In this document: positions 280-37,975 of the stretch, piece by piece
Layout: each line of letters starts with the position of its first letter
Position numbering within the stretch: position 1 is the stretch's first letter
Assembly: GCA_030390025.1 (NCBI GenBank)
Contig: CM059432.1
Span: forward strand, 58,654,001-58,718,000
Direction: 5' to 3'
Source: Squalus acanthias
Taxonomy: Eukaryota
DNA length: 64,000 nucleotides
The notes under the pieces: generated by a model
Databases searched by the model: none
What the model was told of the DNA's origin: nothing
What the model saw: only the letters and a program-made list of their open reading frames with translations
Program-made: the position numbers and the translations under genes

Positions 280-3153
280 TTTAGAATGCATGTACGTAAA
301 TGCACAAAGTGTGGTGAATAAGGTTGGTGAGCTACAAGCACAATTAGCCGTGTGGCAATATGATGTTATGGCAAAACAGAAACGTGGCTTAAAAATGGTG
401 AGGACTGGGCACTTAATATTCAAGGGTACAAGGTGTTCAGAAAAGATAGGGAAGGAAAAAAGGGAGGTGGGGTGGCAGTGCTGATTAAGGAAGACATTGT
501 AGTTTTGGAAAGGGAGGATGTTCTTGAGGGGACAAGGACAGAATCCATTTGGTTAGAGTTGAGGAGCAAAAAGGGTATGATCACGCTATTGGGGGTATTC
601 TATAGGCCTCCAAATAGTGAGAGGGAGGTAGAGGAGCAAATATGCAGGGAAATCACAAAGATATGCAAGAGCTATAGAGTGGTGATATTGGGGGACTTTA
701 ATTACCCAAATATCGATTGGGATAATGCTAGGGTAAAGGGAAAGGAGGGGGAGGAATCTCTGAAATGTGTTCAGGAGAATTTCCTTGACCAATATGTTCT
801 TGGCCCAACTAGGAAGGAGGCATTGCTGGATCTGGTGCTGGGGAATGAGGTGGGTTAGGTCGACCAAGTGTCTGTGGGAAAACACTTGGGTATGAGTGAT
901 CATCGTATCATAAGATTTAGATTAGCAATGAAGAGGAGCAAGGAACAATCTAGAGTGGAACTTCTAAACTGGAATAGGGCTAACTTCAATGGGGTGCGAA
1001 AGGATCTAGCCAGGGTAAAATGGAACCAAAGACTGACAGGAAAAACTGTAACGGAACAATGGGTGATCTTTAAGGAGGAGATGTTCCAAGTACAGGCTAG
1101 GTACATTCCAACAAGAGAGAAGGGTAAGGGAACCAATGCAAGGGCTCCTTGGATGACGAGGGAGAGAGAGAAGATGATGAAACAAAAAAAGAGAGTGTAT
1201 GATGCATGTCAGGTGAATTCTTCAAGGAAGAACCAGACCAAATACAATAAGTTGAGAGGGGATGTGAAGATGAAAATACGATTGGCAAAGAGAGAATATG
1301 AGAGTAGAATGGCGGTTAACATAAAAGGGAACCCAAAAATCTTCTACCGGCATGTAAACAGTAAGCGAGTAGTAAGAGGCGGGGTGGGGCCTATTAGAGA
1401 CAAAGAAGGTGATATATGCTTTGAGGCGCAGGGTAAGGCTAGAATACTCAATGAGCACTCTGTATCGGTGTTTACTAAGGAGGTGGATGCTGACAAAATA
1501 TCGGTAGAAGTGGAAAAGGTAGAAGCAATGGAAGGGGTAAAAATTGATAGACAGGATGTACTAGAAAGGTTGGGTATGCTTAGAGTGGACAAGTTGCCTG
1601 GTCCAGATGGTTTGCATCCCAGGTTGCTAAGGGAATTGGGGGAGGAGAAAGCAGAAGGGCTTGCCATAATTTTCCAATCTTCCCCAGATGCGGGGGAGGT
1701 GCCTGAGGATTGGAAAGTGGCAAATGTGACACCATTGTTCAAGAAAGGGTGTAAGGACAATCCTAGTAACTACAGGCCGGTCAGTTTAACATCAGTGGTG
1801 GGTAAAGTTTTAGAAACAATGATCAATGAAAAAATTAACGGGCACTTGGAGAGGTTTAAGCTAATTGAAGAGAGCCAACACGGGTTTGTAAAAGGAAAAT
1901 CGTGTTTGACTAATCTAATTGAATTTTTTGATGAAGTAACAGACAGGATTGATGAAGGGAATGCAATGGATGTTGTCTACATGGATTTTCGGAAGGCGTT
2001 TGACAAAGTACCACATAGAAGGCTGGTTAACAAAATTGAGGCTCATGGAATAGGTGGGTCAGTGGCAGCTTGGATAAAGAATTGGCTTAAGGACAGAAAA
2101 CAGCACGTTGTGGTAAATGGCTGTTTTTCAGACTGGAGGATGGTAGACAGTGGTGGTCCCCAAGGGTCAGTGCTGGGGCCGCTGCTTTTTTTGATATCTA
2201 TAAATGACCTGGATATTGGAATACAGAGTAGAATTTCTAAATTTGCCGATGACACCAAACTTGGGGGTGTGGCAAACAGTGATGATAATATCAATCGACT
2301 GCAACAGGACATAGAAAGGCTAGCAGAATGGGCAGACAAGTGGCAGATGGAATTTAATACAGAAAAGTGTGAGGTGATGCATTTTGGCAGAAGGAATAGA
2401 GAGAGGCAACATACACTTAATGGCACAGTTTTAAAGAGTGTGCAGGGACAGAGGGATCTGGGAGTTAATGTGCATAGGTCCCTGAAGGTGGCAGGACATA
2501 TTGAGAGAGTGGTTAACAAAGCATATGGGATCTTGGGCTTCATAAATAGAGGTACTGAGTACAAAAGTAGAGAAGTTATGCTGAACCTTTATAAAGCACT
2601 GGTTAGGCCACAACTGGAGTATTGCGTCCAGTTCTGGTCACCACACTTTAGGAAGGATGTGAAGGCCCTTGAGAGGGTGCAGAGGAGATTTACCAGAATG
2701 GTTCTGGGTTTGGGGGATCTTAGCCACAAGGACAGGTTGGAGAAGCTGGATTTGTTTTCATTAGAGCAAAGGAGGTTGAGGGGTGATTTGGTAGAGGTGT
2801 ACAAGATTATGACGGTTTGGGTAGGCTCGACGGGGAAAGGCTGTTCCCACTAGTTGATGGTACAAGGACCAGGGGAGACAGATTTAAGGTTTTGGGCAAG
2901 AGATACAGGGGGACGTGAGGAAAAACTTTTTTACGCAGCAAGTGGTGATGACCTGGAATTTGCTGCCGATGGAAGTGGTGTAAGCGGAGACACTCAATGT
3001 TTTCAAGGGGAGACTGGATAGGCACTTGAGGGAAATAAACTTGCAGGGCTACGGGGATAGAGCGGGGGAATGGGACTGAGGGGATTGCTCTATAGAGAGC
3101 TGGCACGGACTCGATGGGCCGAATGACCTCCTTCTGTGCCGTTATGACTCTAT
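280..3153 (+). mobile_element. CR1 LINE, 5'-truncated (ORF2 plus 3' UTR and ATGACTCT tail)
   Basis: APE endonuclease motifs (YVNAQSV, GVFYRPP, GDFNYP, LLDLVL, SDH), RT motifs (QGSVLGP, KFADD), CR1 C-terminus (RPQLEYCVQFWSP); tail gttatgactctat at 3141-3153 resumes at 6387-6397 and 7118-7127. Confidence 0.95.
433..2853 (+). pseudogene. CR1 ORF2 endonuclease-reverse transcriptase, disrupted
   Basis: ORFs 433-858 and 868-2853 are in one frame, split by TAG at 856-858; frameshifts near both ends. Confidence 0.92.
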
Positions 3154-3430
3154 GGGCTCGATTTTGCCATTGGGGGCGGGCTGGGCGTGTCAGGTGGTTT
3201 TCGTGTCAGGACCCTGACTCCGATGTGAAGTGGAAAAAGTGCGATTTTGCCCTAATTGGGCACTTGATATCCACTGTGTGGACACCCCTGGCCCAATGAG
3301 TCTTTTCATACAGAAAGTCGCCTCCGATTATGTCATCAATGCTGCTGTATTTAAGGCCTGGAAGCAGCCTTGCTTCTTCTGGAGACTGGAAACATTATGA
3401 CCATTGTTGTTAGCCCTTGATTTATCCACT

Positions 3431-5371
3431 ATGTCCAGCAGTAGGCCAAAGTGTGCTCCACGCTTCGATGAGGCCTCCCTCCAAGTTCTGGTGGAGGGAG
3501 CAAGATCCAATAAGGAGGTGCTCTTCCCTTCCTCAGGGAGAAAAATCCACCCCAGCAGACTAAAGTTGTGAGACTGCAACTGGCCCAGGAGGTCAACTCC
3601 ATCTCTATGAGTCGCAGAACCTGGCTGCAGTGCAGGAAGAGGTTTCATGACCTTCTCCGCACAGGAAAAGTGAGTATGACTTTCCCATCACCCTCAATCT
3701 GATTCCTATCGCCTCTCCTCATCAGCACTCTGCTGTGCCAACCTCTTCCTCCACATCCCACTTGACACTTACATCCCTGCACTCTTACCCATTCCCTCTC
3801 TCTCTATGGTCACATTCACTTAACTATTCGACCAAGCAGCCCTCACACTCCCTATCACTGTGATGAAACGACAACAACTTACAACACACAGGGAAGGCCC
3901 TTTGTCTCCTTCTAAGCATCTATGCTATGGGTTCTCTACACTCACTCCTTCATTCTCACTCAAACTCCACTTGTGTCCCTCATTGCAGGAAAAGAGAGCC
4001 CACAATAAGAGGGAAAGAGCGAGGACAGGAGGAGGGCCACCCTCATTAGCCCAGCTCACCACCTGGGAGGAGGCGGCCCTGGAAATCGCCGGAGTGGAGG
4101 ACGATTCCCAAGTGGGGGATGGACAGACAGGCGCATCACAGCAAGCTGGTGACAGAATAGTTTAGCATCTCTCTCATTGACATAGCATGAGTCACTGATA
4201 ATGATTCTGATGCTCTAACAGATTGACTTATGATCATCTGCACTATTCAATGTGCATGTAACCTTGATCTCACATCTCTAACTCTTTCCTTTACTCCCCC
4301 ACAGGACCATCGACAGCCCCCATCCCCACTGTTCAGGAGGAACAGCCTGAGCCTCAAGATTCCACAGAGGAAGCTGCAACCTCTGAGGGCACAGCGTCAG
4401 CAGAATTCAGCGCACCCAGCACCAGCGCAGACACTCACACCTCAGTGGGACCTTCGCAAGATAGAGTAGTGTTGTCACCTGGTGTATCACAGCTCACAAG
4501 TGAGCATCAGCAGATGGTGGAGAGAGGGACAGCAGTGGAGAGTCCTCGTTGAAGGGCGCAGGACTCTGCCAGCTCGGCTCAGCTGCATGTTGACCCTGTG
4601 CCTCCGGGTCTATCCAGAAGGAGAGCGGTGCTGGAACTCCAGGAACAGGTGCAGGAGTCTCTGACAGGTTTTGTATCCAGGGTCACTGTGAGTGTGGAGC
4701 GAATGGAGGAGTCCATCGCGAATATTAGCAGAGACTTTGTGGAGGCATTGGCGCATGAACGCATCACCACGGAAAGGATGGCAACCTCTGTGGAAAGGAT
4801 GGCTACGGTAGAGGAGAGGATGGCTACGGCCATGGAGGAGCTAAGTCACCAGAGTGTTGAAAACATGGTCGTTGTTCAGAATAGATTGGCATCTCTTGAG
4901 GAGCGATGGTCAGCTATTGAGCATAGAAACCAGACCTTCATGGAAGTTCTCTGGAGTAGGGCTTCCAGTGCAGAAACAGGTCCTCATGGCCCCCCTGAAG
5001 TGCAGCAAGGTGCTGTCAAGCCACTTGCTAGCTCTGAAGTGGGGCTGACCCATGAGAGGAATGTTGGTGGCAGACAACAAGGAAGTGGGGGCTCCTCTCC
5101 AAGCGCTCACACGACCATGCCATTGCAAAGCCCTCAGTCAGAGCCCCACCAGAGTCCTCACCCAACTGAGATGGGCGTCTCATCCCCTGCACAGCTGCAG
5201 GAGCAACAGACTGTTGCCGAGCCCACACAGGTTCGCAACCCCAGAGGACAGCCGCCAAAGGTATCGAGGCAGGAGCAGCAAGAAAGTGAGCAAGGGGCCT
5301 CCACATCTGCTGAAGCCACAGGGGAAGCACCACGTAGGAGCACGTGTAAGAGGAAGACAATGCACAAGTAG
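3431..5371 (+). pseudogene. Harbinger Myb/SANT-like (trihelix) DNA-binding protein, 3 exons (3431-3669, 3989-4148, 4305-5371), disrupted
   Basis: APRF..ASLQVLVEG...EVLF...LAQEVNS..RTWLQCRKRFHDL then GTGAGT donor; exon 2 EKRAHNKRERARTGGG; frameshift in exon 1 and in-frame TGA near 4550. Confidence 0.85.
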
Positions 5372-5629
5372 TCACAAGGGTAGTCACTTGCGTGTTATGT
5401 TGTGTTTATTTTTGAAATGCCATTAATTGCTTGTTGTGATAAAAATTTCGGATGGCAAACTGTTGAAGTTGTGGCCTGTGTCATTTCGCAAATGGAACTT
5501 CCACATTGAGGGCTTAGAGCGACTTGCAATTGTCAGTATGGTGGTCAGAGTGATAGGAATCTGCAGGTTCTTGTCCATTGTCGATGCTCTGGTAAGAAGG
5601 TGCGAGGCAAAAGTGTTTGATTGTGCAGG

Positions 5630-5870
5630 CTAAGCAAATCTGGCCAACATGAGTGCGTCCCTTGCATCCCAGGCAACAATGTGGTCGCGCGCTGGTGCCT
5701 TCTGGCCTGTGCAGCTTCAGGTGGGTGAGCAGCAGCTTGGCGCTTCTGTTGTTGCTGCTGCTGTTGGTGCTGCTGTTGTTCATGGTTCTGCTGCTGACAC
5801 GGCTGGTCTTCGTCCGAATCTGATGTCTAGGAGGAAAGGAAATAAATGTTCGCCATGCTTCTGGTATATG
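5630..5870 (-). pseudogene. C-terminal remnant of Harbinger transposase
   Basis: Minus strand reads SDSDED..Q-rich..ARDALMLARFA*, comparable to the acidic tail and ARAVRQRLIASRF* of the intact transposase at 13892; convergent with the Myb gene. Confidence 0.65.
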
Positions 5871-6397
5871 CCTCAGTTGAGGAAGCGCTCAGTCAAGGTG
5901 GGGAGAGGGGTTTCCCAGGAGGTCACACTGGAGATAGGTGTCAGGCTCCAAACTTCCACAACAATGAGTATGCCTGCTAAAAGTTCCCCCAGACCTGAGA
6001 CAACAAAGTTCTGCCACCTGCAAGTGATCATTGGTGAAAACTGCTTTTTAATGGCGGAGCTGCAGCTGTTAGTAAGCAATCCACTTGTGCTGCCGCCAGG
6101 ATTAACTGGCGTGTTCCAGAGGAGGCTTGTAGAATGGGGGAAATGTGTTAAAATAAGAAAGGCCTCTCAAAATGGGATTATAGAGGCAATTAAGTGGTTG
6201 TTAAGGGCCTTAAGGGCCTATCCCGCCTCTTGGAGGTGGGATGGAAACGGGGTCTGAAACCACAAATGTGGGAAAATTGCTCGGAGGTCGGATGGAGGCG
6301 AGATCAGAACCGCCCGCCATTTTTTGCGATTTTACCACCTCACACGCCTCCAATCCCGCATCCTCAAGCCTGGCAAAATCGAGCCCTATGACTCTAT

Positions 6398-7117
6398 GGG
6401 CTGGATTTTGATACTGGGCCGGGTTGAGGGCATGTCATCCACTTTTCATGTTATCCACCCAACTGCAATTGGATGTGGGAGATTGATGCAATTTTCACTT
6501 AATTGGGCAATTGAGTTCCAGCATGTGGGAACCCATGAACCAATTAGTGTTTTTAGTCTGAAAGTCGCCTCTGATGATGTCATCATTGGTGCTGCATTGA
6601 AGGTCTTCAAACACTACCTGGCCTTTGCTGTGAGAGGACCTGGATGCAAAATGAGCAGCAGCAGCCCGAAGTCTGCTCCCAGATCTTTTTACACCACCAC
6701 TCCCAGATATGTCTCCTCTCCATCCATCCATATATACATCCATCCACATAGCCGTCCATATATGCATCCACATAACCATCCATATATGCATCCCCATAGC
6801 CAGCCAGCCAGCCGGCCGTGCTCCCACCAGGTTTCACATTTGTGGTTCAGAACAGGCGTGCTTCACGTAGAAAAAGGGTTAAAAGCACAAAGGCCTTTCA
6901 AAATGGCATTATAGAAGCAATTTAGTGCTTGTTAAGGGCCTTAACAGCCTATCCCGCCTCTTAGAGGCGGGACGGAGTCGGGACCAGCAGACACGATTTA
7001 ATGAAAATTGCGTGGAGGCGGGATGGAGGTGGACTTGTGCCCGCCCACCAGTTTTTGCAATTTTAACCCCCCACACGCCTCCAAACCCGCCTCCACGGGT
7101 CAATGAAAATCCTGCCC
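6398..7117 (+). mobile_element. Harbinger MITE (same family as 22550-23292)
   Basis: Ends GGGCTGGATTTT / AAAATCCTGCCC, TSD TAT; shares long internal blocks with 22550-23292; degenerate ~24-bp repeats at 6720-6810. Confidence 0.88.
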
Positions 7118-7207
7118 TATGACTCTAAAAGGTTTACTTGAGCAGTCAATGGTTCAGTCAGGAGGCATCGAAGGAATGTTGCAAACTGACCTGCAAACAT
7201 TCTTTCA

Positions 7208-8393: not shown

Positions 8394-8550
8394 CATCATA
8401 GAATCATAGAATAGTACAGTACAGAAGGAGGCCATTCGGCCCATCGAGTCTGCGCTGCTCTTTTGAAGGGCAAACCAGTTAGTCCCACTCCTCCGCTCTT
8501 TCCCCATATCCCTGCAATTTTTTCTCCTTCAAGATAGAATCATAGAATAG
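8394..8550 (-). mobile_element. CR1 3' end fragment
   Basis: catagaatcatagaat tail followed by gaaggaggccattcggccc 3' UTR (reverse orientation). Confidence 0.75.
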
Positions 8551-10514
8551 TTAAGCAAATGCTTCTTACATTTTTATGTTCAAAGAAATAAATGTTGACA
8601 GTGAACTGAAACTTAGATTAATTTGAATGTGAGTCAAGTGGAATCTGGATCTATATTTGGATCAAAGTTTTGGTCAAATTTTACAACTAATCCTAAACTG
8701 GAATTTGTTTCCTGTTTTTTGGTGGATTTTAATTATTGCTTACAAGGTTTTTTGTGTGCGTGGATTTTGCTTAAGTAATTATATTTTGCTTTTATTTATA
8801 CACATATTGGTGAATAGAAAATGTACTTCATTGATAATATGAAACTTTATAAATATTACATAGTGTTTTCTAGCAGTTAGCATCTCAAGCGGTCATGATG
8901 TAGAATTGCCGATATAGTTATAGTGTGAATCTGATCTACTACAGTTTCATCAGAACTTAGCTGGGGTGCTCGTTGAAATGCTTTGTTGTAGCAGGATAAT
9001 GAGGAGAATTACTGGTGACATTTTAAATGTTTATTTTAATATTTTTAAAATGCTTTAAGCAAAGCATAGAAAATGAAAATTCTTTAAGATTTCATTGAGT
9101 AGTAGCAATGCACTTCATGAATAATGTCCTGTCAAACTGAACACACCTGAAATTTGACAGCTTCACCATTGTCTGATTCTTCAATGTCCAGCCTGTCTTA
9201 TCCTGGGAGGAAAATATGTGTGTGTGCCTATTCATGCTTAAATCGTAAGCATTCTTAAACAATGAGTCCCCTAATTTAATTCTGTTCATACATAGTTTGA
9301 AATCCTGAGTCTTTTGTGTTCTGAGACAATTTGCAGCACCAGTGACAGCTCCAGCAAGCTAAATAGGATGTAAGGGTCTACCTCAAGATGCATTGGACCG
9401 CCTTCGCACAGCGAATACCAGAAAATCGTGCTCCATGATATTGCTCATGTTGGAGATGCCAGTACATATCTGAGTGTTAGACTCCCCCATATTCCCCAGA
9501 GTGTGTTGTACTATTGAGCGTAAGGAGGCAGATGCCTCCACAATAAAGTGCTGCTGTTGTAATAACCTCCATTTGAAAGCAGGACCACTGAAGTCTGCAT
9601 CCTCATACAACTCAGTAGGACTACTTATAAGACAGGCTTAGTTCTTGTTTAGAGATTTAGTAGTATATTATAATGATGTTACAATAATACAAGTATTAAG
9701 GCTCAAATAGTGCATTCCTTTTAATGTTTTTCTTAAACAATGTTATCTGCAGTGCAGAACTGGGTGTACATTCCAAAATAATCCTCCTCGCCCCCAAAAG
9801 GGATATGCTGCTTTAAATAATGACACATGTCATATTTTATTGTAAATGATATGATCATGTATATTGTTATACCCTTTTATGCTATTATATTATGCAAAAA
9901 ATTTTAATTAAAAATGCACTTACTGCTTTTAACAGAGGCAAAGAGAAGGAAAAGACCTTCTCTGACCAGTTTCTGATCTTGAGGGGAAACATCAAGCCAA
10001 GGCTATGCTGTGTCCCAGCAAAGGGGATGAGAGGAGATCTGTCAAGTCAGACAGGTGAAGAAGAAGGGAAGCAATGAAGGGAAAAAGAGGAAGGTGTTCA
10101 AAATGAAGTTTGAAACAGAAATGGGAATAGAGTGATACAAGGTTGCAGTAAAATAAGTATAAATCTGTAGGAGTGATTCCATGGTCTGCTCTCCCAACGG
10201 GGAGTGGAACTCGCAGGAAGCATACCTGGGAAAATTGCCGGCATGCATCCATGATTTTGCACCCATTTTAACGGGTGGAAAATTGGTGGCTGCATGCCAA
10301 ACAGGTCCCAGTATCACCGCTTTATATTACAGTTGAACCTTGATTATATCTCTGCTTCTATTATCTTTGTTCTCAATTGGGAAACCAGTGGGAATTGGGG
10401 CTGCCAGCATTTTGTTTTGTTTGAAAGCACAGTTCTTCTGCTTCTAGTAACAGCTGCTGCTGTGACTGCGGATTAATCAGCTAATCTGGTGGACCAGTTT
10501 CCACATATTCCTTC

Positions 10515-10662: not shown

Positions 10663-11393
10663 ACTCCTGTGCTGGATTATCCATTTGGATGGATTATCAA
10701 GGTTCTGTTACAATTTTGAATTGGAAATTGCTTTTAAATTAACTTTACAGTGTTCAGCAAGATGAAACACTAAGGAATGGGACACTTTTCCACTTTAGAC
10801 ATGTATTAGTAGATTTTGCAATCAGGACTCAACTTGGTCATTAGTCACACAGTACATTATTAGGACCTGCCTGACATTAGTGTGCTGATCTCACCTTATC
10901 TTGCAGAATCAACTTCATTGCCAGATGTGGGGAAGCTCCTGGTGTAAGATACCCTAGTTGTGTATACATATAAACGTAGGATTAGGATTTGGTTTAATCT
11001 CATATGATTAAAATCTTTCGTTTCTTTATACTTATAGGGGTAGAAATTAGGTCGCGCCCCATTTGGGGCGCAAATATCGTCCGGACGCAAATATTAGCGC
11101 CTGGCGCTAATTATCGGCACTGACAGGAAACTTCACTTTTACCGCCCCGGGAGGTGAGTGGAGCGCTAAATTAGGCGCTGCACACCTCTCTTAAGGCGCA
11201 AAGGCCAAGGAGTGAGGCGCTAACTCAGCGCACGAGCGCAGCGCAGCTGCTGCCAGTTAGCGAGGGAACACAGACACACTGGCGCCGGCCACTTCTTAAA
11301 GCGGGGGGGGCCACTTGCTCCCCAGCCACACCCTGCTCATTGCAGCCTTGAATCTCAGCCTGGAGAGACCTGTAATCCATTTTGCTGCCAAGC

Positions 11394-13271
11394 ATGGAGA
11401 GGGTGAGAGAACGCGCTCATCGCTTCACCGAGCGGGCCTTGGATGCTCTGGTTAACGCAGTGGAGCGCAGACGATGCATGCTGTTCCCGGAGAGTGGCAG
11501 GAGGCCTTTGCCACGCGAGTTCAGAAGAGTGTGGAGGGAGGTGGCTCAGAGCGTCTCCTCCAGGAGCATGGTGCCCAGGACCCATGTTCAATGCCGCAAA
11601 AAGTTCAACGACCTCACCCGGGTCGTCAGGGTGAGTGGCTTTTTCTCAATACCTCTCCATCCCTCCATCTCAACCTCACTCTATGGCCAGAGGGTCTTAA
11701 AACCCCAATGCACAACACTCATCCAACACCTATGGCCCTTTCATCAAACACACACACGCATTCTACACTTTGCATACAGTAAGGGCTATTCACCTATGGG
11801 AGGCACATCAGGCAAGACCATGGCTGCATACAGTAAGGGCTATTCACCTATGGGAGGCACATCAGGCAAGACCATGGCTGCATACAGTAAGGGCTATTCA
11901 CCTATGGGAGGCACATCAGGCAAGACCATGGCTGTATATTTACTCAGATGCTGTCCTTTTTCTTGCAGGCTAAGCTGGCTCATAATCGGAGACAGCAGCA
12001 ACGGACGGGTGGAGGGCGGCTTCAGCTGCAACCCCTCAGCGATCTGGAGGAGCGCGTCCACAGGGTTGTGGCAAGCCGGGTGATCGGTCCCGTCGCCACT
12101 GGAGACGCCGACCCCGTTGTGGACAGCAATGGTAAGGTCATCACCTTTTTGTCCTCTGTCCTTCCACTTGTCCCTCACAATACCAGCCTTTGACACTTTC
12201 AATCCAACTTGCTAACTCGCTGCACTTATTCCTCCCTTACTACCACCCTGTCCTCACGCTAAAGCCACTCTTGTACCTCCCTGCTTTCAGATGGTGATTC
12301 ACCAGCTGAGGAGACGGGCCCTGAAGCTGCCACTGGGAGTGATGCTGCAGCTGAGGAGGAAGAGGAAGCCGGAGCATCAGTGCCACCCTCTCCCGAGGAA
12401 GCCCATGCCCACACTGGGAACACGCCTTCCCCGGAGGGGAGCAGGGGGGAAGGGGCTGATGATGGTGAAGCTCCAGGACCCAGCGGGCTGCAGCAACGCC
12501 ATGGGGGGGGGTAGGGAAGAACGGGGGCCTTCTCCCCAGAGGGAGAGTATGCCAGACACTCCTACTGCAATGGACGCAGAGGAGGAGCGGCTGATTGCAG
12601 AAATGAACAGCCAGGCGGTGGGCATGCACACTGAGCTCATGGGTGCAGTGGGAAGGGTGCCCGAATGCATTGAATCACTGGCAAGGAGTGTGGAGCACTT
12701 CGCTGTAGCACAGGCGGATGCCACACTAAAGCTTAGTGCTGCAATTCAGTCACTGGCTGCCAGGAACCCATCTGAGACTGCTCTCATGCAGACTCAGATT
12801 GAGGCCACGCGAGCACTGACTGCTGCCATCCTCGATGGTTCGTGCACATGTCCCCGGGGCTGTCACCGCGCCGCAGCAGGCCAGCAATCTGTTCTCCGGC
12901 AAATTGCTCCGGATGCTGAAGTGCTGCCCCGTGGGAGTGCCAGTGTGTCGGGCGAGCAGGGAGTTGCTGTCCTCTCTCACGATGACAGCATTCCTGCTGC
13001 CAACACTGTCACTTCTCCACTGCACTTGCCACCGCCTGTAGGACAGACTGCTGCCGCCCATGCAGAGTTGGTGCAGTCTGCAGCCGGGCCCTCCAGGCCC
13101 AGAAGTGGTCGAGACCGTCCTTCAGGGGCATCTGCAGTGTCAGGGTCTGACGAGCAGCAGCCTTCCACCAGCCTTGCTGCAGCCACTGAGGTCCCATTAC
13201 GGAGGAGCAGTAGGGTTGGAAGGGGGGAAGTGCGCAAGGGAAGGAGATCACCCTCGAAGGGCAAAAAGTAG
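11394..13271 (+). CDS. Harbinger Myb/SANT-like protein, 3 exons (11394-11630, 11969-12131, 12291-13271); one extra G in a G9 run at 12503-12511
   Basis: MERVRERAHRFTERALDALV...WREVAQSVS...QCRKKFNDL; GT-AG introns of phase 0 and 1; HNRRQQQRTGGG; basic C-terminus. Confidence 0.85.
11771..11934. repeat. 3 x 54-bp perfect tandem repeat in intron 1 of the Myb gene
   Basis: Unit tgcatacagtaagggctattcacctatgggaggcacatcaggcaagaccatggc starting at 11771, 11825, 11879. Confidence 0.97.
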
Positions 13272-13375
13272 GAGGTGTGCCAAAATGCTGGTCATTTTTT
13301 TATTAAAGGCCGAGGTTCATGGTCCAACTTTTGTTTAGTGTTTTGGACATTATCTCCAGGTTGTGAGAACCAGTT

Positions 13376-13721
13376 ATAGAAACATAGAAACATAGAATCT
13401 AGGAGCAGGAGTAGGCCATTCGGCCCGTCGAGCCTGCTCCGCCATTCAATACGATCATGGCTGATCATCCAAATCCAGTACCCTGTCACCTGCTTTAATC
13501 CCCACAGTACACATGTCCCACCCTACCCCCGTAACCCCACGTATTTAATTCCCCCTACCATATCCCATCCTATCCCCATAACCCCACATATTTAATCCCC
13601 CCTAACACTAAGGGTCAATTTATCATAGCCAAATCAACCTAACCCACACATTTTTGGACTGTGGGAGGAAACCGGAGCACCCGGAGGAAACCCACGCAGA
13701 CACGGGGAGAATGTGCAAACT
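13376..13721 (-). mobile_element. HE1-like V-SINE, 5'-truncated, inserted between the two Harbinger genes
   Basis: Reverse complement is very similar to 59042-59388, including V-domain GGGTTTCCTCCGGGTGCTCCGGTTTCCTCCCAC and (TTTCTATG)n tail. Confidence 0.9.
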
Positions 13722-13891
13722 GTGTTTATTTCTATGAGTTTGTCATGAGGAATTGACACACACAGAGTTTGTAAAATAAATACGTTTCTGTATTCAAAAT
13801 ATACATGGCTGGTGGTTGGAATTATTGGTGCCTTGGCCGGCTTAGGGGTTGCGTGCTGGGTTGATTAGTGTTTGTAGCAATGGCAGGGGCC

Positions 13892-15052
13892 CTAGAAGCG
13901 GCTTGCTATTAGTCGTTGACGGACGGCCCTTGCAGTTTGACCATTGTGGGCCGCCCTCCTGCCTTGGTGCTGCTGATGATCATCGTCCTCGTCCTCTTCC
14001 TCCTCTTCCTCCTCCTCCTCTGGTGGTGCTACAAGGCCTGGTGGCATTGGCTGGGTCCTGAGGATTGCCATGTTGTGCAACATGTAGCACACGACTACGA
14101 AGTTCGAAACTTGCTCAGGCGAGTACTGCAGGGCTCCTCCGGAATGGTCCAGACAGCGGAACCGTTGTTTCAGCACGCCGATTGTGCGCTCAATAATGTT
14201 CCTGGTTGCTTGATGGCTTTCATTGTACCGCAGCTCAGCAGGGGTGTTTGGCGTACGGAGCGGTGTCATCAGCCAGGTGCTCAATGTGTACCCCTTGTCC
14301 CCCAGAAGCCAACCAACTGGCTGATGCGGTGCCTCGAAAACTTCTGCCACAGTAGTCTGGCGCAGGATGAAAGCATCGTGGCAGCTGCCCGGATAGTGGG
14401 CATTGACAGCGAGTATCACCTGTCTGTGGTCACAGACCAACTGCACATTCAAGGAATGGAACCCCTTTCTGTTCCTGAATTCCTCTGCATTCTCTCGCGG
14501 AGCACGCAAAGCCACATGCGTGCAGTCAATGGCGCCCTGCACCATGGGGAAGCCCGCTACCCTCGCAAAGCCCAGAGCACGGTCACGCTGCTTGTCTGGG
14601 GTCATAGGGAAAGAGATGAAGTCTCGTCTCCTTCTGAAGAGGGCATTGGTGACCTGCCGGATGCAGCGATGCACCGCAAACTGGGAGATATTGGCGAGGT
14701 CCCCAACAGCAGCTTGGAATGAGCCAGTGGCGTAGAAGTTCAAAGCCACTGTGACCTTCACTGCCACCGACAGAGACGTCCTGGACCTCAGCTGAGGCTG
14801 CAGATCTGGCTGCAGCAGGTGGCAGAGCTCAGTGACCACCTCCTTGCTGAATCGCAGCCTTCGCAAACACAGCTCCTCAGACATATGGATGTAGGAGAGC
14901 TGTTCACGATATACCCTGGGAGGGTAAGCTCTCCTGTACATGCGCCTGATGGCCCTCCTCCGTCTGGCCATCATTGCCACTCTCTGTCTGCGTCTCACTA
15001 TCCTCCGATTCAGCTGGAGCAGGACGACGCCCCCAATCATTGCAGCCCCCAT
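13892..15052 (-). CDS. Harbinger (HARBI1-like) DDE transposase, intact 386 aa
   Basis: GAIDCTHV, NRKGFHSLNVQLVCD, PGSCHDAFIL, LLGDKGY, YNESHQATRNIIERTIGVLKQRFRCL; uninterrupted ATG-to-stop ORF inside TIRs. Confidence 0.96.
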   Translation of the reverse strand: MGAAMIGGVVLLQLNRRIVRRRQRVAMMARRRRAIRRMYRRAYPPRVYREQLSYIHMSEELCLRRLRFSKEVVTELCHLLQPDLQPQLRSRTSLSVAVKVTVALNFYATGSFQAAVGDLANISQFAVHRCIRQVTNALFRRRRDFISFPMTPDKQRDRALGFARVAGFPMVQGAIDCTHVALRAPRENAEEFRNRKGFHSLNVQLVCDHRQVILAVNAHYPGSCHDAFILRQTTVAEVFEAPHQPVGWLLGDKGYTLSTWLMTPLRTPNTPAELRYNESHQATRNIIERTIGVLKQRFRCLDHSGGALQYSPEQVSNFVVVCYMLHNMAILRTQPMPPGLVAPPEEEEEEEEEDEDDDHQQHQGRRAAHNGQTARAVRQRLIASRF

Positions 15053-15574
15053 ATTCTCTTTGCCAGAAAAGTAATGAGGTACAGCAACTAAAGTAGCAAC
15101 AAAGTTAGGATGAACTAGGCAAAACTACCTCACAAAGCGTTGAGTCAATGTAGAAGTCTCTCTCTCTCTCTCTCCGAATCTCTCCCTCTCTCTCAGAACG
15201 AGTGGTGCATAAATGTCGACCACAGAAAAAGACAGGAAGAGGCCCCCTTTAAATAGCGCCCCCCCCAGCCCCACACCGATTGATAACGTTCCAGTCTTCC
15301 GGTCGTTGGAAGCGCCAGGCGGTAAGGCAGGGGGCGCCACTCAATTTCCGCTCCGGGGCGCCCCAAGGGCGTTGCACCATGGAATGACGTCACAATCTGC
15401 GCGCGCAGGTGGTCGCAGCGGTAAGTTTTAGCGCCGCCGCACAATCTCAAATTAAGTTCTCGAGCGGCGCAAACAGCGCTGCGCCCGGGCGTTAGCGGCT
15501 TAACGCCCCATTAGCGCCCTCTTAAGGCGCTAACGGGAGGCGCAACCAAGTGAATTTTTACCCCATAGATTTGT

Positions 15575-15786
15575 ATGAGAAGTCACACAACACCAGGTTA
15601 TAGTCCAACAGTTTTATTTAAAATTACGAGCTTTCGGAGCTCTGCTCCTTCGTCAGGTACAGGTACCTGACGAAGGAGCAGAGCTCCAAAAGTTCGTAAT
15701 TTTAAATAAAACTGTTGGACTATAACCTGGTGTTGTGCGACTTCTCATTTTTGTCCACCCCCAGTCCAACACCGGCATCTCCGCAT
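15575..15786. mobile_element. Penelope-like element remnant with inverted terminal duplication (86-bp arms)
   Basis: Arms 15575-15660 and 15663-15748, 83/86 complementary, 2-nt spacer; each arm carries a hammerhead core and AATAAA. Confidence 0.75.
15625..15659 (-). ncRNA. Minimal type I hammerhead ribozyme motif
   Basis: UAC-CUGACGA-A-GGAGC(AGA)GCUCC-GAA-AGCU-C-GUA: core boxes, 5-bp stem II, palindromic AGCU in place of stem III, 3-bp stem I. Confidence 0.7.
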
Positions 15787-15789
15787 GTA

Positions 15790-16562
15790 GGGGTAAAAAT
15801 TGAGTCGCGCCCCATTTGGGGCGCTAACCTCGCCGGGGCGCTACTTTTAGCGCCCCGAAAAAATTAGCGGCCCCGCGCCGGAACTTCAGTGGTTGCGCCC
15901 CAAGAGGGAAGCGGGGCACCACTGGAAGCACCCCGCATCCCTCTTGGGGCGCTGCGAGGGAATATCCTGGCGCTACGTGCCGCAGCGCCAGGCGCTGCGG
16001 CACGTCACACCGCGGTATTGCAGGCCTTCCTCCCCTTCTTAAAGGGGAGGGACCCTGCGCAGCGCGAACCGGGGCCCAGCTGGGCCCCCAGGGATCGGGA
16101 GTGCCGGCAAAAGAGCCCGGCACTCAAGAGAAGTGCCGGGCTCTTGGAGCGCAGCCGGCACTTCACGGTGCGGGGGCTTCACGGGGGCCGGGGACAGCAA
16201 CGGGGGCAGGTGCTGGCAGGCGGCCAGCAACAAAAATGGCCGCCTGCCACCTCCCCTTTAAATATCGCCGCCCCGGCCGCACGTACGCCTCCCTGAACCC
16301 GTCGGACATAGCGTCTGGCGGTAAATCAGGGGGCGCGACTGAAGATCGCGGCTGGAGCGCGAGCGGGGTGCTGCGCACGGCGATGACGTCATCGCCGGCG
16401 GCGCAGCGCCACAGGGCGCTACCGGCTGGCGCCGCCGCTAACCTCCCGCTGAATTTTTCGGGAGGCGTGGGCGGCGCTGCGCCCGGGCGTTAGCTGCTTT
16501 ACGCCCCATTAGCGCCCTCTTAAGGCGCTAACGGGAGGCGCAAGCAGCTGAATTTTTCCCCC
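15790..16562 (+). mobile_element. GC-rich Harbinger MITE related to 11037-15564
   Basis: GGGGTAAAAATT / AATTTTTCCCCC ends; last ~85 bp nearly identical to the right end of the full-length element; TSD imperfect (GTA/ATC). Confidence 0.88.
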
Positions 16563-17031
16563 ATCGATTTGTACTGTAGCTAGAAATAATGAAATGGTTA
16601 AAAGTTGTCCATTCCCAGGGTGCTTTAGGGTTTAATGTATAAGGGTACAATTTAGCTGACCGTGCTGTTTAGTTTTTGCTTATAGTGTGTGATTTGTGCC
16701 CGTTGACTTACTTTTGTGGCCACATTGTGAAATGAGATAGACAAGACAGTCTTGAGATAGGAAGTGAGACATTGGAGCTAAGAATGATTAGTTACATCCT
16801 AAATGGTTGTGTATACATATATACAAGTTGGCATCTGGTAAATTTTGAAGGAACTATCTCATTTCTGGGGGTCTTGTCCATAATAACACTTGTCATGCCA
16901 TAATGAATCAGCAATGTTCATAAGAGGTGGCCGATAAAGATCTTAAGCTTTCCTTAACAAGTTGTAGAGAGAGTCAGGATTGAAAGGATCGACAAAGGTT
17001 ATCTGTCTACCTGGGGAAATGTGATAATATT

Positions 17032-17816: not shown

Positions 17817-18560
17817 GGGCCGAAAATTGATCCCGGGACGCGAGAGTACGCACTGCGTACTCTCGCGTATTTCCACTCCAATTGCCGGTTTTCTGCATGC
17901 CCTGCGCATGCGCTGAAAACCGGCAATTGCTCTTCCGAAAAGGGGGCGGGGCCGGAGTGCATCGCGTGCGCGCTACAGGCTGCGCGCACGCTGTGCACTT
18001 CATGCTTTGGACGCGCAGGTAAATAGGGAAGATTTTGGAAATGTAAAAAGGAGGAGTAAGACCCGCTTTTAAGAAGGTAAGTAGTGAATTAAGTATTTTT
18101 TTGAATTTTTTTTTACAGGTATATCTTTTTTATAGACTTTAAAGACAGGTAAGTTTATTTTTATAACTTTTTAAAAGATTTTAAATTTTTTCAAAAATTT
18201 AATTTTTTATTTAAAATGGTTAATTTAATTAACTATACTTATTTTATTAATGTGATGGTTTTTTTTTTAAATTTAATTGAGGTTTAGCTGTTATTTTGGG
18301 GGGGTGTAAGATTCATAAGTCTCACAGCTATGCTGTGAGACTTATGAATGGAAGATGGTGTGCTGCCATTGGCTCTAACTGAGTCACGTGATCCCACAGC
18401 TCGCACGAATTAACTACGCCGCTGGGATACGCAAGCCCAGCACAGCTGATGTATGGAACATCAATTTCGTGCGAGCTGGATCAGAAAAAGCATAAGCGAG
18501 GTGAGACATCGCGGGGAAGGCTTACCCACGCGGGAACAGAGCGAGATCAATTTCTGGGCC
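17817..18560 (+). mobile_element. Harbinger-type MITE with internal palindromes
   Basis: TIR GGGCCGAAAATTGATC / GATCAATTTCTGGGCC (13/16), TSD AAT. Confidence 0.82.
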
Positions 18561-21900: not shown

Positions 21901-22016
21901 ATAGGTATGTAAAAAGGAAAAGATTAGCGAAAGTAAATGTGGGTCCCTTACAGGCTGAGACAGGAGAAATTATAATGGGGAATAAGGAAATGGCAGGGAA
22001 ATTAAACAAATACTTT

Positions 22017-23576
22017 GGGCTGGATTTTGTCAGCCCCGAGGAGGCAGGACTGCCGGTAAAGTTGCAGAATTTGGGGGCGGGTGGCAAACCCGCCCCCAAC
22101 CCGCCTCCGTGCTCTCTTGCCAGGAGGCAGGAAGCCATCCTGCCCCGGGTCCCGTCTCCTCGAGGCGGGAACGGACATAAAGCCTATTAACTGCCTGTTA
22201 ACGGGTAGTTAACAGGCAGAAAATAGGATTATCCCCATTTTTCGTTCCGAAGTGCAGGCTTCCCGACCTCGGGGAACCCTGCCAGGATGTAGGAGATGAG
22301 TAGGGGGTCTGAAAGTGCAATGTAGAGGTGAGTGATGGGTGCAAGTGTGCAGTGGTAAGTATGTAAGGTGAGTGTAAAGTCTTAGAAAATGTTCACTTAC
22401 CTTTGTTTCTGCCGACAGCCTTCAGCCGCTGTGGAGCCGAATTCCCAACATCTCCATTGTAGATATCACAGACTGGCTGTTGGATCCTCCGAACCAACAG
22501 CCAGGTGATTTCTGCAAAATTGAAAGGTTTGATGAGTCCTGAACACAAGGGGCTGGATTTTGTCTTGGGGTCGGGTTGGGGCCGTGTAATCCGCATTTCG
22601 TGTTTCCCCCCCGACTCCAGATTAATGTGGATGCCTGATGCAATTTTCACTTAATTGGGCAATTGAGTTGCAGCATGTGGGAACCCATGAACTAATTAGT
22701 GGTTTCAGGCTGAAACCCGCCTCTGATGATGTCATCATTGCTGCCTGCCTGCTCTCAGAGATTGTCTGGCTACTGGTGAGAGAGGACCTGTCTGCATTGC
22801 TTCTGATGTGAGTGGACCTGGATGCAAATGAGAGAGAGAGAGAGAGAGAGATTTTTGCATCCAACTTACACCAAATGCCATGACATTGAATGTAGCAGTA
22901 TCAGAGGCGACTTTCACACCTAATACTACTACTACCTTCATCACATCTCTGTTGTAATAGTGGACTTACAGCCGATAGTCAGCTATCCACTTGTGCTCCC
23001 ACCAGGTTTCACTGGAGTGTTTCACATCAGGCGTGCTTCACGTCAGAAAAGGGTTAAACTAGCTACAACATTTCAAAATAGCATTACAGACCCAATTTAG
23101 GGCTTGTTAAGGGCTGTAATGGCCTCTCCCGCCTCCAAGAGGCGGGAGAGAGTCGGGAACCCCGCGACTGATTTTGTCAAAATTGCGTGGAGGCGGGATG
23201 GAGTCGGGATGGGGTTGGAAAGCCTGACCCCGCAAATTTAACCCCCCACACGCCTCCAAACCCGACTCCATGGGTCATTCAAAATCTAGCCCAAGGTATC
23301 ATCAAACTACACAGAATGTCAGTGTTTGACAGCTTCACAGGGCTGTCAAACGATGACATTTCATCTTTCAAAAGTTCTTGACAGATGGCACGTCATACGT
23401 TGACGTGCTCTGTCACTGACTTCCCCCTAATTGGCCTGCTGAGCCCGCTGGGTGGGCTTAACAAGGTCAATCAGGGGAAAATCCCGCTGGTTGGCCAGAA
23501 GTTGATGGAGGTGGGATTGAAAGCCGGCAAGCAGCAGTCCCGCCTTCAAAAGCTTCCCATTGAGAAAATCCAGCCC
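22017..23576 (+). mobile_element. Non-autonomous Harbinger inserted in CR1 ORF2
   Basis: TIR GGGCTGGATTTTGTCA / TGAGAAAATCCAGCCC (15/16), TSD TTT; removal restores NKYF-VSVFT. Confidence 0.92.
22550..23292 (+). mobile_element. Harbinger MITE nested in 22017-23576
   Basis: TIR GGGCTGGATTTTG / CAAAATCTAGCCC (12/13), TSD AAG; homologous to 6398-7117. Confidence 0.9.
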
Positions 23577-27204: not shown

Positions 27205-27650
27205 GGCCAGAATTTTGCCTACCTGGGCAGGTCCGGTGTGGGTGGTGTCCATGGTGGGTCGTGACCCCGCTGCTGGCTCCATCTTACTTTAATTAAGCCT
27301 GCCCAGCGTGTTACCCGGCCCAATGAGATGGAACGGGCCTGGTGACGTCATTCATGATGCGTTTTCAGCCGGGATCTTTAAAGGGACCATGGCCACATTA
27401 GATTTGAAGTTTAATCGAACATAGTGCTGTCAGTGCACTGCAGTATTGGAGTGCTGCAAACACTGACAATCACTGCACAGAGGCAGAGGGCTGCACCCAG
27501 GTTCTCCGATGACTCTCTCCATATGCTTGTGGACGGAGTCAGAGCACGCAGGGAGGTCCTCTTCCCTTCCAATGGGCGGAAGAAACCTCCCCAGGAGACC
27601 AAGACAGCCTGGTTGCAGATTGCAGAGGAGGTCACAAGTAGGGATGTAAT
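27205..27650 (+). mobile_element. Harbinger left-end fragment with part of Myb/SANT exon 1
   Basis: Starts GGCCAGAATTTTGCC; RAAPRFSDDSLHMLVDGVRARREVLFP..AWLQIAEEV. Confidence 0.75.
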
Positions 27651-28388
27651 TGGGGACTATTTTTTACTGCAGGGTGCTTCTGGCATTGATACAAATTCTG
27701 GCCAGAAAATTGAGTGGGGTGCTAAATATTACACATTTCAGTCAGGAGACCTACATTTACCCTAAAAGTTCATATACATAATACATATGTATATAAATTT
27801 GATGTAACGGATCTTCGCCCATTTTTCTGATTGATTATGCCCATTTTACACCAGTTAATTGGCTGTAACTTATCAGAAAATCTATCTTTCAAAGTCATAA
27901 TCTACCACTCCCAGTTCAGGTATAATATGAGTTAGATGCAGAATAAATATCCCTCTACTTTGTCTCAACAACATATCTTCAGCGTTACTGTGGAGTAATT
28001 TAAATATATTTACATTCAGTAGTTGTTAAATATAAAATGATGATATGGATACAGGGGTAATTTTATTTTGGTCAGCACTAAGATTTCACCTTCATCAAAC
28101 AATATACAAAATTGGGCCCGTTGTATGAATTACAAACTGGAGTTCTATTGGAGATGAAAGTATGATGAGAGTGCAATTAAATAATATGACAGGCCTATAT
28201 CGCCTTCTAATCTTTCTAAGTTTACTGGAGGTATTCAAAATATGGTTTTAGTTGAGAAGAGGCTGTAAAATACTGATTATAGATAACCACACAATATTGA
28301 CTTTCTGTCACAGGATGCAGGCAGAAACCAGATTGATAAATTACTGTTCTTTTCCATTGAAGAGCAAACATTCTTTCTGCATTTTAAT

Positions 28389-30026: not shown

Positions 30027-30550
30027 GGTCCCAAATTCCGAGTCATGTGATCTGCCACCTAAGTGTGCGAGCATGGAAATTCCGCCATCCAATTGCCCCG
30101 ACACTGACCCTGCTGGAAAACTTGACGTCAGCTAATTGCAATATTGCTGGATGGGACAAAGGCCCATGTCCTCCCAGAAATCGGCCAATTACACTGGGAG
30201 GCCCAGAAAAAACATGGGGGGGGGGGTGCAGAGAAAATGCTGTATTTAAAGCTGGACTGTTCTTCAAACAGAACTGGCATGCAGCAATTTAAAACCATAG
30301 ATCAAAAAGGAACCAGAAAGCAGAAAGTCTCAAACTTCTCAGAGTGACATTGTTCAAACTGAAATTAGGCATGGGGAGGATGGAATAATAGGACTGGGAG
30401 GCAAGAGACCTGTTAAAACTGGAGCCAGGACTATGTGGAAAGGAATGGGACAGGTACTGAGTGGCAACTCCCTAACCACCCTCCCTCCACTCCTACCCCA
30501 TCAATGCAGGATCAGATTTAATGACCTCATAATCTCAGCAAAGGCAAGAA
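30027..30550 (+). pseudogene. Old Harbinger fragment with degenerate Myb/SANT exon
   Basis: RKQKVSNFSE..., WKGMGQVLS, QCRIRFNDL in broken frames. Confidence 0.5.
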
Positions 30551-31235: not shown

Positions 31236-31670
31236 GTCATGACGGTAAAGATTGTGCACAATTCCTGAGAAGAATGGGGTAAAGGAGAAGGGATAGCAGA
31301 AGAAAGAGGCAAAGCAAATCCTGGGAATGAGGATATTCCAGGCTCTACCCATTTGTACCTTAAACTTGCAATCAGGGTCTTACAACGGCATAGGACCCCA
31401 ACTAGGATATTTAAACAGTCCCCTCCAGAAACAGGTGGGCGTGTTTGCCCATTTACAGGCCCACCTGTAATTGCATCAGGTGAGCCTTGGGCGTCAGTGG
31501 GACGTCTGAGGTGCCACTCCCCCTAACTGTCAACTGCTGGCCACACATTTTTCAGGCAAGAAATGGGTGGCTGGCAGTTGAAAATCACCCCTATCTGTCT
31601 CCATCGTGAATCCTATCAGTTGCAATCACAGTCCAGATAGGTTAACTCGGGTGATAGTCATAGAGTCATA

Positions 31671-32563
31671 GGGGGAGAAATTCAGTATCGCCCCATTTGA
31701 GGCGCAATTATCGGCCGGGCGCAAAGATTAGCGCCTGTTGCTAATTATCGCCTCCGACTGCAAACTTGACTTTTATCGCTCCTGGAGGTGATTGGAGCGC
31801 TAAATCAGGCGCTTCACACCTGTCTTAAGGCGCAAAGGCCGAGGAGCGAGGCGCTACCTCAGAGCGCTGGCGAAGCACATGTGATGTCAGTCAGCAATGG
31901 AACACACACACAATGGCGCCGGCCAGTTCTTAAAGGGGAGGGTTGATCTTGCTCTCCATCCACATCCTGCTCATTGCAGCCTTGAATCTCGGCCTGGAGA
32001 GACCTGTACATCAAAACTGCTGGAAAGAACAATGGAGAGTACCAGGGAAAGAGCTCAGAGTGCAGCCCCCACAATCTCTTCTAAATCGATACAAGGAAGG
32101 ACAAATCAAAATGAACCTGCAAAGTGCTGCTCAGTACCCAAAACTCCTTCACACAGCGTTGAATCACTCCAGAAGTCTGTCTCTCTCTCTCTCAGAATGC
32201 GTGGTTCAAAAATGTCACCAACAATAAAAGGCAGGAAGCGGTCGCCTTTAAATAGCGCTCCCCCAGTCCCTTCCTGACTGCAAAACGCTCCCCTCAACCT
32301 ATCGTTGCTAGCGGCAGGCGGTAAGGCAGGGGGCGCCACACAATATCTGCTCCGGGGCGCTACCGGGGCGTTGCGCACTCGATTGATGTCACGATCTGCC
32401 AGCGCAGGAGATCGTGGCGGTAGTGTTTAGCGCCACCGCAAAATGTCTAGTTAATTTTGCGAGCGGTGCAAACATCACCGCACCTGGGCGCTAGTTGCTT
32501 TGCGCCCCATTAGTGCCCTCTTAAGGCGCTAACAGGAGGCGCAGCCAACTGAATTTTTCCCCC
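31671..32563 (+). mobile_element. Harbinger deletion derivative related to 11037-15564
   Basis: TIR GGGGGAGAAATTCAG / CTGAATTTTTCCCCC (14/15), TSD ATA; left part aligns to 11037-11375, right part to ~15125-15564; both genes absent. Confidence 0.92.
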
Positions 32564-33745: not shown

Positions 33746-33939
33746 TGTCGTAAGAATGAGCCTTACGCGTGGTGAACTTAAAGTAAGCTTTAATCAACTA
33801 AAAAGGTGCTACATACAAAAGAGGTCTTACTCTATGCCTCTCCAGGATCCAACTGATCAGTCCAGTATATATCCTGGACTAATCACAGGAAGTGATGCAA
33901 TAAAGTTCGAGTCACAGGAAGCTGTATTGTGTTACCACA
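33746..33939 (-). repeat. 3' LTR
   Basis: 3 mismatches versus 37976-38169. Confidence 0.95.
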
Positions 33940-34302
33940 TTCTGCCCCCCCCCCAAAAGATTAGGAGGCCGGGATGAAGTTCGAGTCACAGGAAGCTGTA
34001 TTGTGTTACCACATTCTCCCTCCATTTCGTAGCCGCTGGACGAGGGAGAGCCGCACCCGTTTGGGTTCTCGTAGCGGTAGAGGGCCCCTAGCCCGTTTAC
34101 CCGCCGCGGGCCGTGGACCAGAGTCCGAGTGATCCAGCCCGCTCTGTGAGGGGTCAGGACGATCCTGACTGTGTACTGGTGCCCGAACGGGTGTCGGGCA
34201 GGGCTGTGGCAGATCCGTTTCCGAGCGTACGGTACAGGGTGGATCGTGGCTGCGTGTGCGAGCCCCGACGGGCTCATAGTCAGTCTGCCCCAGGTCGGCA
34301 CG

Positions 34303-37897: not shown

Positions 37898-37975
37898 GAT
37901 GGGTGATTCCCTGGATCCTTAGTTCCGAGTTCGTCCAAAAAGTTTGAGTGCGAAGTTTTCCAAAGTTGATTAAAT

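Follow-up and report, generated by a model that had tools for sequence, protein, structure and literature searches.

Three DNA transposons of the Harbinger type were found inside the 8-bp repeat tails of two CR1-type long interspersed nuclear elements (LINEs) in a 64,000-nucleotide stretch of the Squalus acanthias genome (GCA_030390025.1, contig CM059432.1, positions 58,654,001 to 58,718,000, forward strand); this whole stretch is called the window, and its first letter is position 1. Two of the transposons occupied consecutive units of one tail and the third interrupted another, as the initial annotation had claimed; the coordinates and flanks were all present in the sequence, and the observation was confirmed as real. 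The explanation favoured here, with a probability of roughly two in three, is that the tails are passive hot spots of the known, extended target preference of Harbinger transposons, and not a homing system. Locally, the coincidence was more than chance; genome-wide, CR1 may plausibly be the source of much of the supply of Harbinger landing sites.

Insertions within two CR1 tails

The first CR1-type LINE (364–3142, forward strand, as are all features below unless stated) comprised an endonuclease (364–855), a reverse transcriptase (RT) frame (859–2850) and a 3' untranslated region (UTR), and its 3' end matched other LINE ends of the window. Pfam recognised the domains Exo_endo_phos_2 (E = 1.1e-8) and RVT_1 (E = 1.5e-33), and the frame from 364 to 2853 contained two stops in 830 codons. 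The tail of this LINE read TATGACTC TAT (H1) TAT GACTC TAT (H2) TAT GACTC TA, where H1 and H2 denote the inserted elements. Its first part (TATGACTC-TAT, 3143–3153) ended in the left target site duplication (TSD) of H1 (3151–3153). H1 itself (3154–6386; 3233 bp), a Harbinger-type deletion derivative, had perfect 16-bp terminal inverted repeats (TIRs) and TSDs of TAT/TAT. The tail unit that followed (6387–6397) consisted of 11 bp, being the right TSD of H1 (TAT), GACTC and the left TSD of H2 (TAT); H2 (6398–7117; 720 bp) was a non-coding Harbinger-type element with TIRs matching at 11 of 13 positions and TSDs of TAT/TAT, beyond which lay its right TSD and the last tail unit (TAT-GACTC-TA, 7118–7127). 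With H1 and H2 taken out, and one TSD removed for each, three clean 8-bp units remained, of which both internal TAT triplets had been filled.

The second CR1-type LINE (32575–40954, reverse strand) was near full length, with a GDSL/esterase first open reading frame (ORF1, 40004–40954; Pfam Lipase_GDSL_2, E = 5.1e-14) and an RT (32838–33797; RVT_1, E = 6.7e-24). A long terminal repeat (LTR) retrotransposon lay inside it (33746–38169), the 194-bp LTRs of which were 98.5% alike. The tail (31654–32574, reverse strand; TATAACTC-TAT / TAT-GACTC-TAT-GACTA) was split by the third transposon, E3 (31671–32563), a non-coding element of 893 bp from a second Harbinger family with GGGGKARAAATT ends, whose TIRs matched at 15 of 16 positions and whose TSDs were ATA/ATA. 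The flanks of E3 read GAGTC-ATA-GAGTT; the tail unit after this site differed at position +5 and was empty.

Assignment to the CR1 clade followed from Pfam matches to an apurinic/apyrimidinic (APE) endonuclease and RT in ORF2 and to an esterase-type ORF1. An 8-bp tail, which in this clade comes after a 3' hairpin, was also present. A GDSL/esterase ORF1 is a mark of CR1-group elements. Hairpins at the CR1 3' ends folded at -27.5 and -25.1 kcal/mol, values calculated with no shuffle control. When TSDs of the CR1 elements were sought in order to fix the sequence of insertions, only an 8–10-bp match near 41108 was found, which is within the range of chance.

The ends of H1 and H2 were only 72–74% alike, and H2 is therefore no local copy of H1; it was closer to a copy at 22550 (about 80%), and its depth profile across four contig runs was unlike that of H1. 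The ends of H1 and H2 were about 50% alike to those of E3 and its relative E1 (see below). Given this divergence among H1, H2 and E3, three different lineages had used the tails.

Comparison of the region 2950–7207 with contigs of the four runs showed that the element families were high-copy in all of them; no contig spanned the locus. Among the loose ends listed, 211 contigs (run X1) and 267 contigs (run X20) left the stretch at 3154 and continued with the consensus ACTCTATGAC, although agreement at these loose ends was low (0.36–0.4), and they yield no occupancy rate. Since so many contigs ran on in ACTCTATGAC, this unit belongs to the normal tail of the family in related genomes, and many tails are without an H1-like element at that point. 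No joint or loose end was seen at 6386, 6398 or 7117 among those listed for this region, an absence that is no evidence either way. Outside these runs, the Harbinger right-end pattern had no further copies in metagenome and viral contigs, the transposase of E1 had no related loci in the same contigs, and the CR1 3'-end pattern had no match in viral and prokaryote contigs.

A palindromic target repeated along the tail

A scan for TIRs with a 3-bp TSD, together with inspection, delimited eight elements belonging to three end families within the one window; Harbinger-like stretches at about 27205–27705 and at 28389, whose ends could not be delimited, were kept outside all counts. TSDs of 3 bp were matched in seven of the eight. 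Besides H1, H2 and E3, the elements were E1 (11037–15564; TSD ATA), E2 (15790–16562; the exception, with unmatched TSDs of GTA/ATC), a Harbinger-type element within a CR1 coding region (22017–23576; TSD TTT), an H2-like element nested in the latter (22550–23292; TSD AAG), and an element of a third family with Harbinger-like ends (17817–18560; TSD AAT). Two of these provided sites outside tails that the initial annotation had listed as fitting its palindrome, and both read as it had claimed: AATAC-TTT-GTTTC at 22017, where both the site and its 3-bp duplication were confirmed by a paralogous CR1 copy near 58.7 kb that lacks the insertion, and AACAC-AAG-GTATC at 22550. The element at 17817 lay outside the palindrome, also as claimed. 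At 15790 the earlier description of a fit to the right half only was accurate for the sequence as it stands, but the cause was a later insertion of 214 bp that had displaced the left flank; with this insertion removed, the site became AGATTT-[GTA/ATC]-GATTTG and was separated from E1 by 11 bp. The site at 11037 read TACTT-ATA-GATTT.

To avoid the tail sites altogether, the motif was rebuilt from the half-sites of 22017, 22550 and 11037 (three sites, n = 6). These six half-sites (AATAC, GAAAC, AACAC, GATAC, TACTT and AAATC) had A at -4 and W at -2 in every case, R at -5 in five, and C at -1 in five (Y in all six). With the letters of zebrafish Harbinger3_DR as the prior, the joint probability of A at -4 and C at -1 was 1.2e-6, or 1.2e-4 when the non-fitting 17817 was included. 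A weight matrix trained on these three sites placed H1, H2 and E3 in the top 0.13–0.16% of 51,299 positions. Therefore, an extended palindromic target shared by Harbinger-type elements, as first proposed from the tail sites among others, was derivable without them, and the target palindrome is not circular. The looser form A-N-N-Y-[TSD]-R-N-N-T was fitted by seven of the eight sites, and the TSD triplet was TAT/ATA in four of the eight elements.

The suggestion that a (GACTCTAT)n tail presents one palindromic target every 8 bp held good. Because GANTC is its own reverse complement, a (GANTC-TAT)n tail strings complete targets together head to tail. Arrays of four units contained three full motifs each when the unit was GACTCTAT, GATTCTAT or GATTCTGT, and none when it was GTTTCTAT or GTTCTTAT; the ATGACTCT unit is thus not special, in that GATTCTAT and GATTCTGT units form an equal array. 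GATTCTRT, the usual CR1 octamer of vertebrates, forms this array as well. The 3' microsatellite of bird CR1 is reported as the octamer ATTCTRTG in PMC8665684; this is a rotation of GATTCTRT, and so the array property is general to CR1. Harbingers also used the motif outside tails, once inside coding sequence of a CR1 (22017) and once inside another Harbinger (22550).

Other CR1-related sequences of the window carried sites of the same kind. The conserved N-E-Y-F-A-S-V-F stretch of CR1 ORF2 contained a near-target that was filled at 22009–22021 and empty at 38697, 49832 and 58693 (reverse strand); LINE bodies therefore supply sites too. Two 360-bp copies, 96% alike (13365–13721 and 59042–59400), shared a CR1-type GTTTCTAT tail and a 47-bp internal duplication, and represent a short, young LINE-tailed element; the first tail unit was a full Harbinger motif, empty in both. 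A short CR1 3' fragment was bordered by GATTCTAT repeats at both ends (8395–8414 and 8533–8551), an arrangement that would suit insertion into a copy of the repeat forming its tail.

Tail enrichment and competing explanations

Enrichment was evaluated over the window with the elements removed (51,314 bases), leaving out the nested element at 22550, such that seven insertions were scored. Tails made up 148 bases (0.29%) in seven stretches, one of which (8533–8551) consisted of an 8-bp repeat with no LINE body attached; the count did not take in the tail within E1. Three of the seven insertions fell in tails (P = 8e-7, or 1.2e-4 with H1 and H2 taken as one event), and these values are optimistic, the window having been selected for the coincidence. 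The excess depended on the motif required by the null: P was 8e-7 for any base, 1.5e-5 for ANNY-NNN-RNNT, 0.007 for RANWY-NWN-RWNTY and 0.18 for RANWC-NNN-GWNTY. The last of these occurred at 12 sites in the whole window, of which five were filled and seven empty (15.4 expected from shuffles); tails provided five of the 12. The filled proportion was 3/5 in tails versus 2/7 elsewhere (one-sided P = 0.31), which indicates that tails were not favoured further once the full motif was given. Neither the enrichment of tails nor its loss under the strict motif is firm.

These results are best accommodated by the passive hot-spot explanation. The transposases of two Harbinger families would read a symmetric target some 13 bp long, R-A-N-W-Y(C) - 3 bp - (G)R-W-N-T-Y, as derived from seven sites, and would cut it with a 3-nt stagger, with duplication of the central triplet. 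On the protein side, judging from E1 and from known Harbingers, the flanks would be read by the DDE transposase and its Myb/SANT partner. The first CR1 would have inserted with three tail units, after which H1 and H2, as members of different subfamilies, would have occupied its two internal TAT triplets by separate insertions; one unit of the second tail would have been taken by E3. That CR1 preceded the Harbingers is suggested by the split tails observed here and the uninterrupted tails of related genomes. CR1 being very abundant, its tails would account for an appreciable part of the best targets, which the transposon would treat as it does any copy of the motif, and CR1-specific recognition or co-evolution would be unnecessary.

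Several observations weigh against this explanation. The surplus in tails remained under the looser motifs (P = 0.016–0.046 with H1 and H2 as one event), so some extra pull of tails is possible, and the tail sites were already known when the strict motif was formulated. When 17817 was added to the training set, the tail sites fell to the top 1.8–3.0%. The tail site with the highest score (59369, GATTC-TAT-GTTTC) was empty, as was its twin at 13387, and no second junction of a CR1 tail with a Harbinger was present among the joints and loose ends listed (15 of about 415 and 24 of about 8,730, respectively). The central triplets TAT, ATA, TTT and AAG fitted no published TWA, CWG or TNA class. Finally, the data comprise only eight delimited elements from a single window, which had been chosen because of the coincidence.

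The strongest competitor, itself unlikely, is a true preference for tails beyond the motif, through tandem arrays, DNA shape, chromatin or better survival in LINE tails; Harbinger specificity may even have been tuned to the CR1 octamer. Besides the surplus under looser motifs, this would account for the filling of both GACTC-type tails of the window, one of them twice, for the use of tails by two families with such dissimilar ends, and for TAT/ATA being the TSD triplet in half of the elements. Against it stand the occupancy of full motifs, 3/5 inside and 2/7 outside tails (P = 0.31), and the hundreds of contigs that continue the GACTCTAT tail without an H1-like element at that unit. Moreover, the letters at -4 (A), -1 (C), +1 (G) and +4 (T) are already present in the zebrafish consensus and need not stem from the CR1 tail. 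A more ambitious combination was given the same low standing: here the CR1 octamer tail (GANTC-TRT-GANTC, from this genome to birds) would be a self-renewing safe landing strip for vertebrate Harbingers, holding a large share of their copies beyond that due to the motif, and Harbinger specificity would have tracked it (from a CWG to a TAT core). If this were true, LINE retrotransposition would keep supplying the best Harbinger targets, and junctions of tails with Harbingers would be predicted in all lineages that possess both, with none in GTTTCTAT-type tails.

Slightly less probable again is an effect of neighbours, whereby the first element of a pair places the second, either by local insertion 8 bp past its end or by duplication of 11 bp; H1 and H2 would then count as one event, and the 8-bp step would match the tail period by coincidence. 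The argument for this comes from E1 and E2, which were separated (15565–15789, with the later insertion removed) by ATA GATTT GTA, an equal spacer of 3+5+3 outside any recognisable CR1 tail. E2, with its unmatched 3-bp TSDs, was flanked by a direct repeat of 10/11 positions (right flank at 16563–16573), and four of the eight elements belonged to such pairs. The E1–E2 arrangement can be explained in either of two ways: two insertions struck one short 8-bp repeat, so that the idea of an array would apply to every repeat of this kind, or an insertion beside an existing end can duplicate 11 bp, in which case the H1–H2 step would become less informative. On the first view, both E1 and E2 would have entered a short (ATAGATTT)2 repeat, which fits the looser motif. 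Against the effect of neighbours, 3-bp TSDs in a three-unit tail require no mutations for H1 and H2, whereas an 11-bp duplication requires one; E3 was alone in its tail; and the pair counted once still gave P = 1.2e-4 against the uniform null. A hidden CR1 tail at the E1/E2 site was also considered, and it did no better than shuffles when compared with seven LINE ends.

Very improbable is the reverse order, in which CR1 arrived after the Harbingers and used a GACTC-TAT flank resembling its tail for priming or annealing. The long open frame of the first CR1 was kept while H1 decayed, and the CR1-tailed fragment at 13365–13721 lies inside E1, such that CR1-type elements have also entered Harbingers; but the tail units carry on beyond H1, H2 and E3, the unit is the CR1 family's own in related genomes, prior GACTCTAT repeats would be required at both loci, and the element at 22017 plainly splits the coding region of a CR1. 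Equally remote is a chance cluster in a genome saturated with repeats, singled out afterwards: the numbers are small and the window is one of at least 147 noted in this genome, but P with the pair counted once was 1.2e-4, or about 0.02 when multiplied by 147, and the motif was recoverable from non-tail sites.

On the passive hot-spot explanation, a known target preference would here have met a known repeat, in a single case that is clear but local. Were this to apply genome-wide, the tail of a retrotransposon would set where a DNA transposon accumulates. Repeat dating based on nesting, which assumes even insertion over older elements, would be biased, and tandem stacks of Harbingers 11 bp apart would be explained. 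With the tails, Harbinger target recognition would also have a natural read-out with high counts, which could benefit sequence-selective transposon vectors.

Element families and comparison with known systems

E1 was a two-gene Harbinger of 4528 bp, with a Myb/SANT gene starting at about 11400 on the forward strand (Myb_DNA-bind_5, E = 9.9e-9) and a DDE transposase at 13892–15052 on the reverse strand (Pfam DDE_Tnp_4, E = 3.6e-38; 131 bits against a cut-off of 24.8 for 13892–15121). These genes lie tail to tail, which is the Harbinger layout, and the transposase frame was stop-free over 386 aa. A 54-bp triple repeat was present at 11771–11938, and the CR1-tailed fragment mentioned above lay between the two genes. 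E2 (773 bp) belonged to the E1 family, and both E2 and E3 had their ends in common with E1. The right flanks of this family were near-identical in all three copies (ATMGAKTTRTA at 15565–15575, 16563–16574 and 32564–32575), hinting at a longer, one-sided target preference. The insertion between E1 and E2 contained an inverted repeat with 86-nt arms (15575–15786) and TGTA on both sides; with its hammerhead-like core words, it is presumably derived from Penelope.

H1, H2 and E3 were assigned by their ends, and H1 also by a Myb-like exon (about 3455–3693, forward strand), broken and frameshifted, which gave a tblastn match to the Myb protein encoded in the window itself (E = 1e-9). The catalytic core of the transposase was absent from all three, and tblastn gave no transposase match in H1, where a stretch on the reverse strand (5630–5665) is likely, from its resemblance by eye, to be a remnant of the transposase C-terminus. 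Contigs of the four runs all carried extra letters at position 5853 of H1, as expected if H1 is an internal deletion derivative. Decayed Myb-like remnants were seen at 27205–27705, between Harbinger-like ends without a clear TSD, and at 30400–30528. The third end family (GGGCCGAAATT-like) occurred at 17817–18560 and from 28389 onward, in both cases inserted after AAT with T-rich flanks, a target habit that differs from those of the other families. Elsewhere in the window were nested inverted repeats resembling miniature inverted-repeat transposable elements (52765–54961 and 60758–61100), with TACAGGAAACT ends that were not Harbinger-like, and a near-perfect hairpin (46842–47027) with 89-nt arms and an 8-nt spacer.

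The features of the PHIS superfamily were present, namely a Harbinger/IS5-type DDE transposase (E1), a second gene with a Myb/SANT domain (E1, and the remnant in H1), and short TIRs with a 3-bp TSD. According to PMC4482050, this superfamily is absent from sharks, and two surveys report no Harbingers in the shark or elephant shark examined; by comparison, they were abundant in this genome. NuwaI and NuwaII, as described in PMC4482050, are similar to the present elements in combining a DDE transposase with a Myb/SANT gene in about 4.5 kb (4528 bp in E1), in TIRs that begin GGG or GG, and, for NuwaII, in having C at -1 and G at +1. The target given there for NuwaII is C|TNA|G (PMC4482050, Han et al. 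2015). The TIR words of the window had no match in the text of supplement 1 of PMC4482050, which may hold no TIR sequences. The TSDs were different, being neither CWG nor TNA: the CWG of NuwaI was found at none of the eight elements, even though TIRs do start GGG, and the flanking C and G of NuwaII were found at five of eight, with a TNA core at none. The TWA duplication of PIF/Harbinger sensu stricto was likewise found in 0/8. By their TSDs, which fall outside the TWA, CWG and TNA classes, the elements are Harbinger sensu lato only.

The consensus of plant PIF is CWC-TTA-GWG. Plant PIF and mPIF are described in PMC6327408 as having an extended 9-bp target preference; they resemble the present elements in that the preference reaches past the 3-bp TSD, and differ in their TWA core.

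Insertion into other repeats is familiar from Tx1L in Tx1D and from microsatellite-specific LINEs. Dada DNA transposons target small-RNA genes, according to PMC3706591. With all of these the present case shares insertions that pile up in other multicopy sequence, sometimes tandem; on the descriptions available, they differ in being strictly site-specific, nearly all copies of a Dada-like element occupying one site of one repeat, whereas five of the eight elements here lay outside CR1 tails. This proportion points to a motif hot spot and not to homing.

The bird CR1 octamer (PMC8665684) is similar in forming an 8-bp tail, which there, and probably here, comes after a hairpin-forming 3' UTR, and when rotated it gives a GATTC-TRT array; the unit here is GACTCTAT, and the available text does not discuss the octamer as a target of DNA transposons. 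Open-access literature listings, with Repbase reports outside their scope, yielded no paper on Harbingers in CR1 tails.

The closest parallel is zebrafish Harbinger3_DR, for which the available descriptions give a palindromic 15-bp target (PMC3016246, PMC3432063) with the consensus AAACACCWGGTCTTT (PMC3016246). The fit to this consensus claimed by the initial annotation was good for the flanks only, since none of the eight central triplets was CWG. The five palindromic sites agreed with the Harbinger3_DR flanks at 7, 7, 8, 9 and 8 of 12 positions, scores of at least 7 and at least 8 being reached by 2.8% and 0.6% of window positions, respectively. The differences are therefore in the core, which was TAT, ATA, TTT or AAG, and in the setting, LINE tails being unmentioned in the descriptions of Harbinger3_DR as far as these were available (PMC3016246, PMC3432063). 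What the two systems have in common is the two-gene layout, seen here in the autonomous relative E1, and an extended palindrome around a 3-bp core, with A and T at -4 and +4 and with C and G at -1 and +1, respectively.

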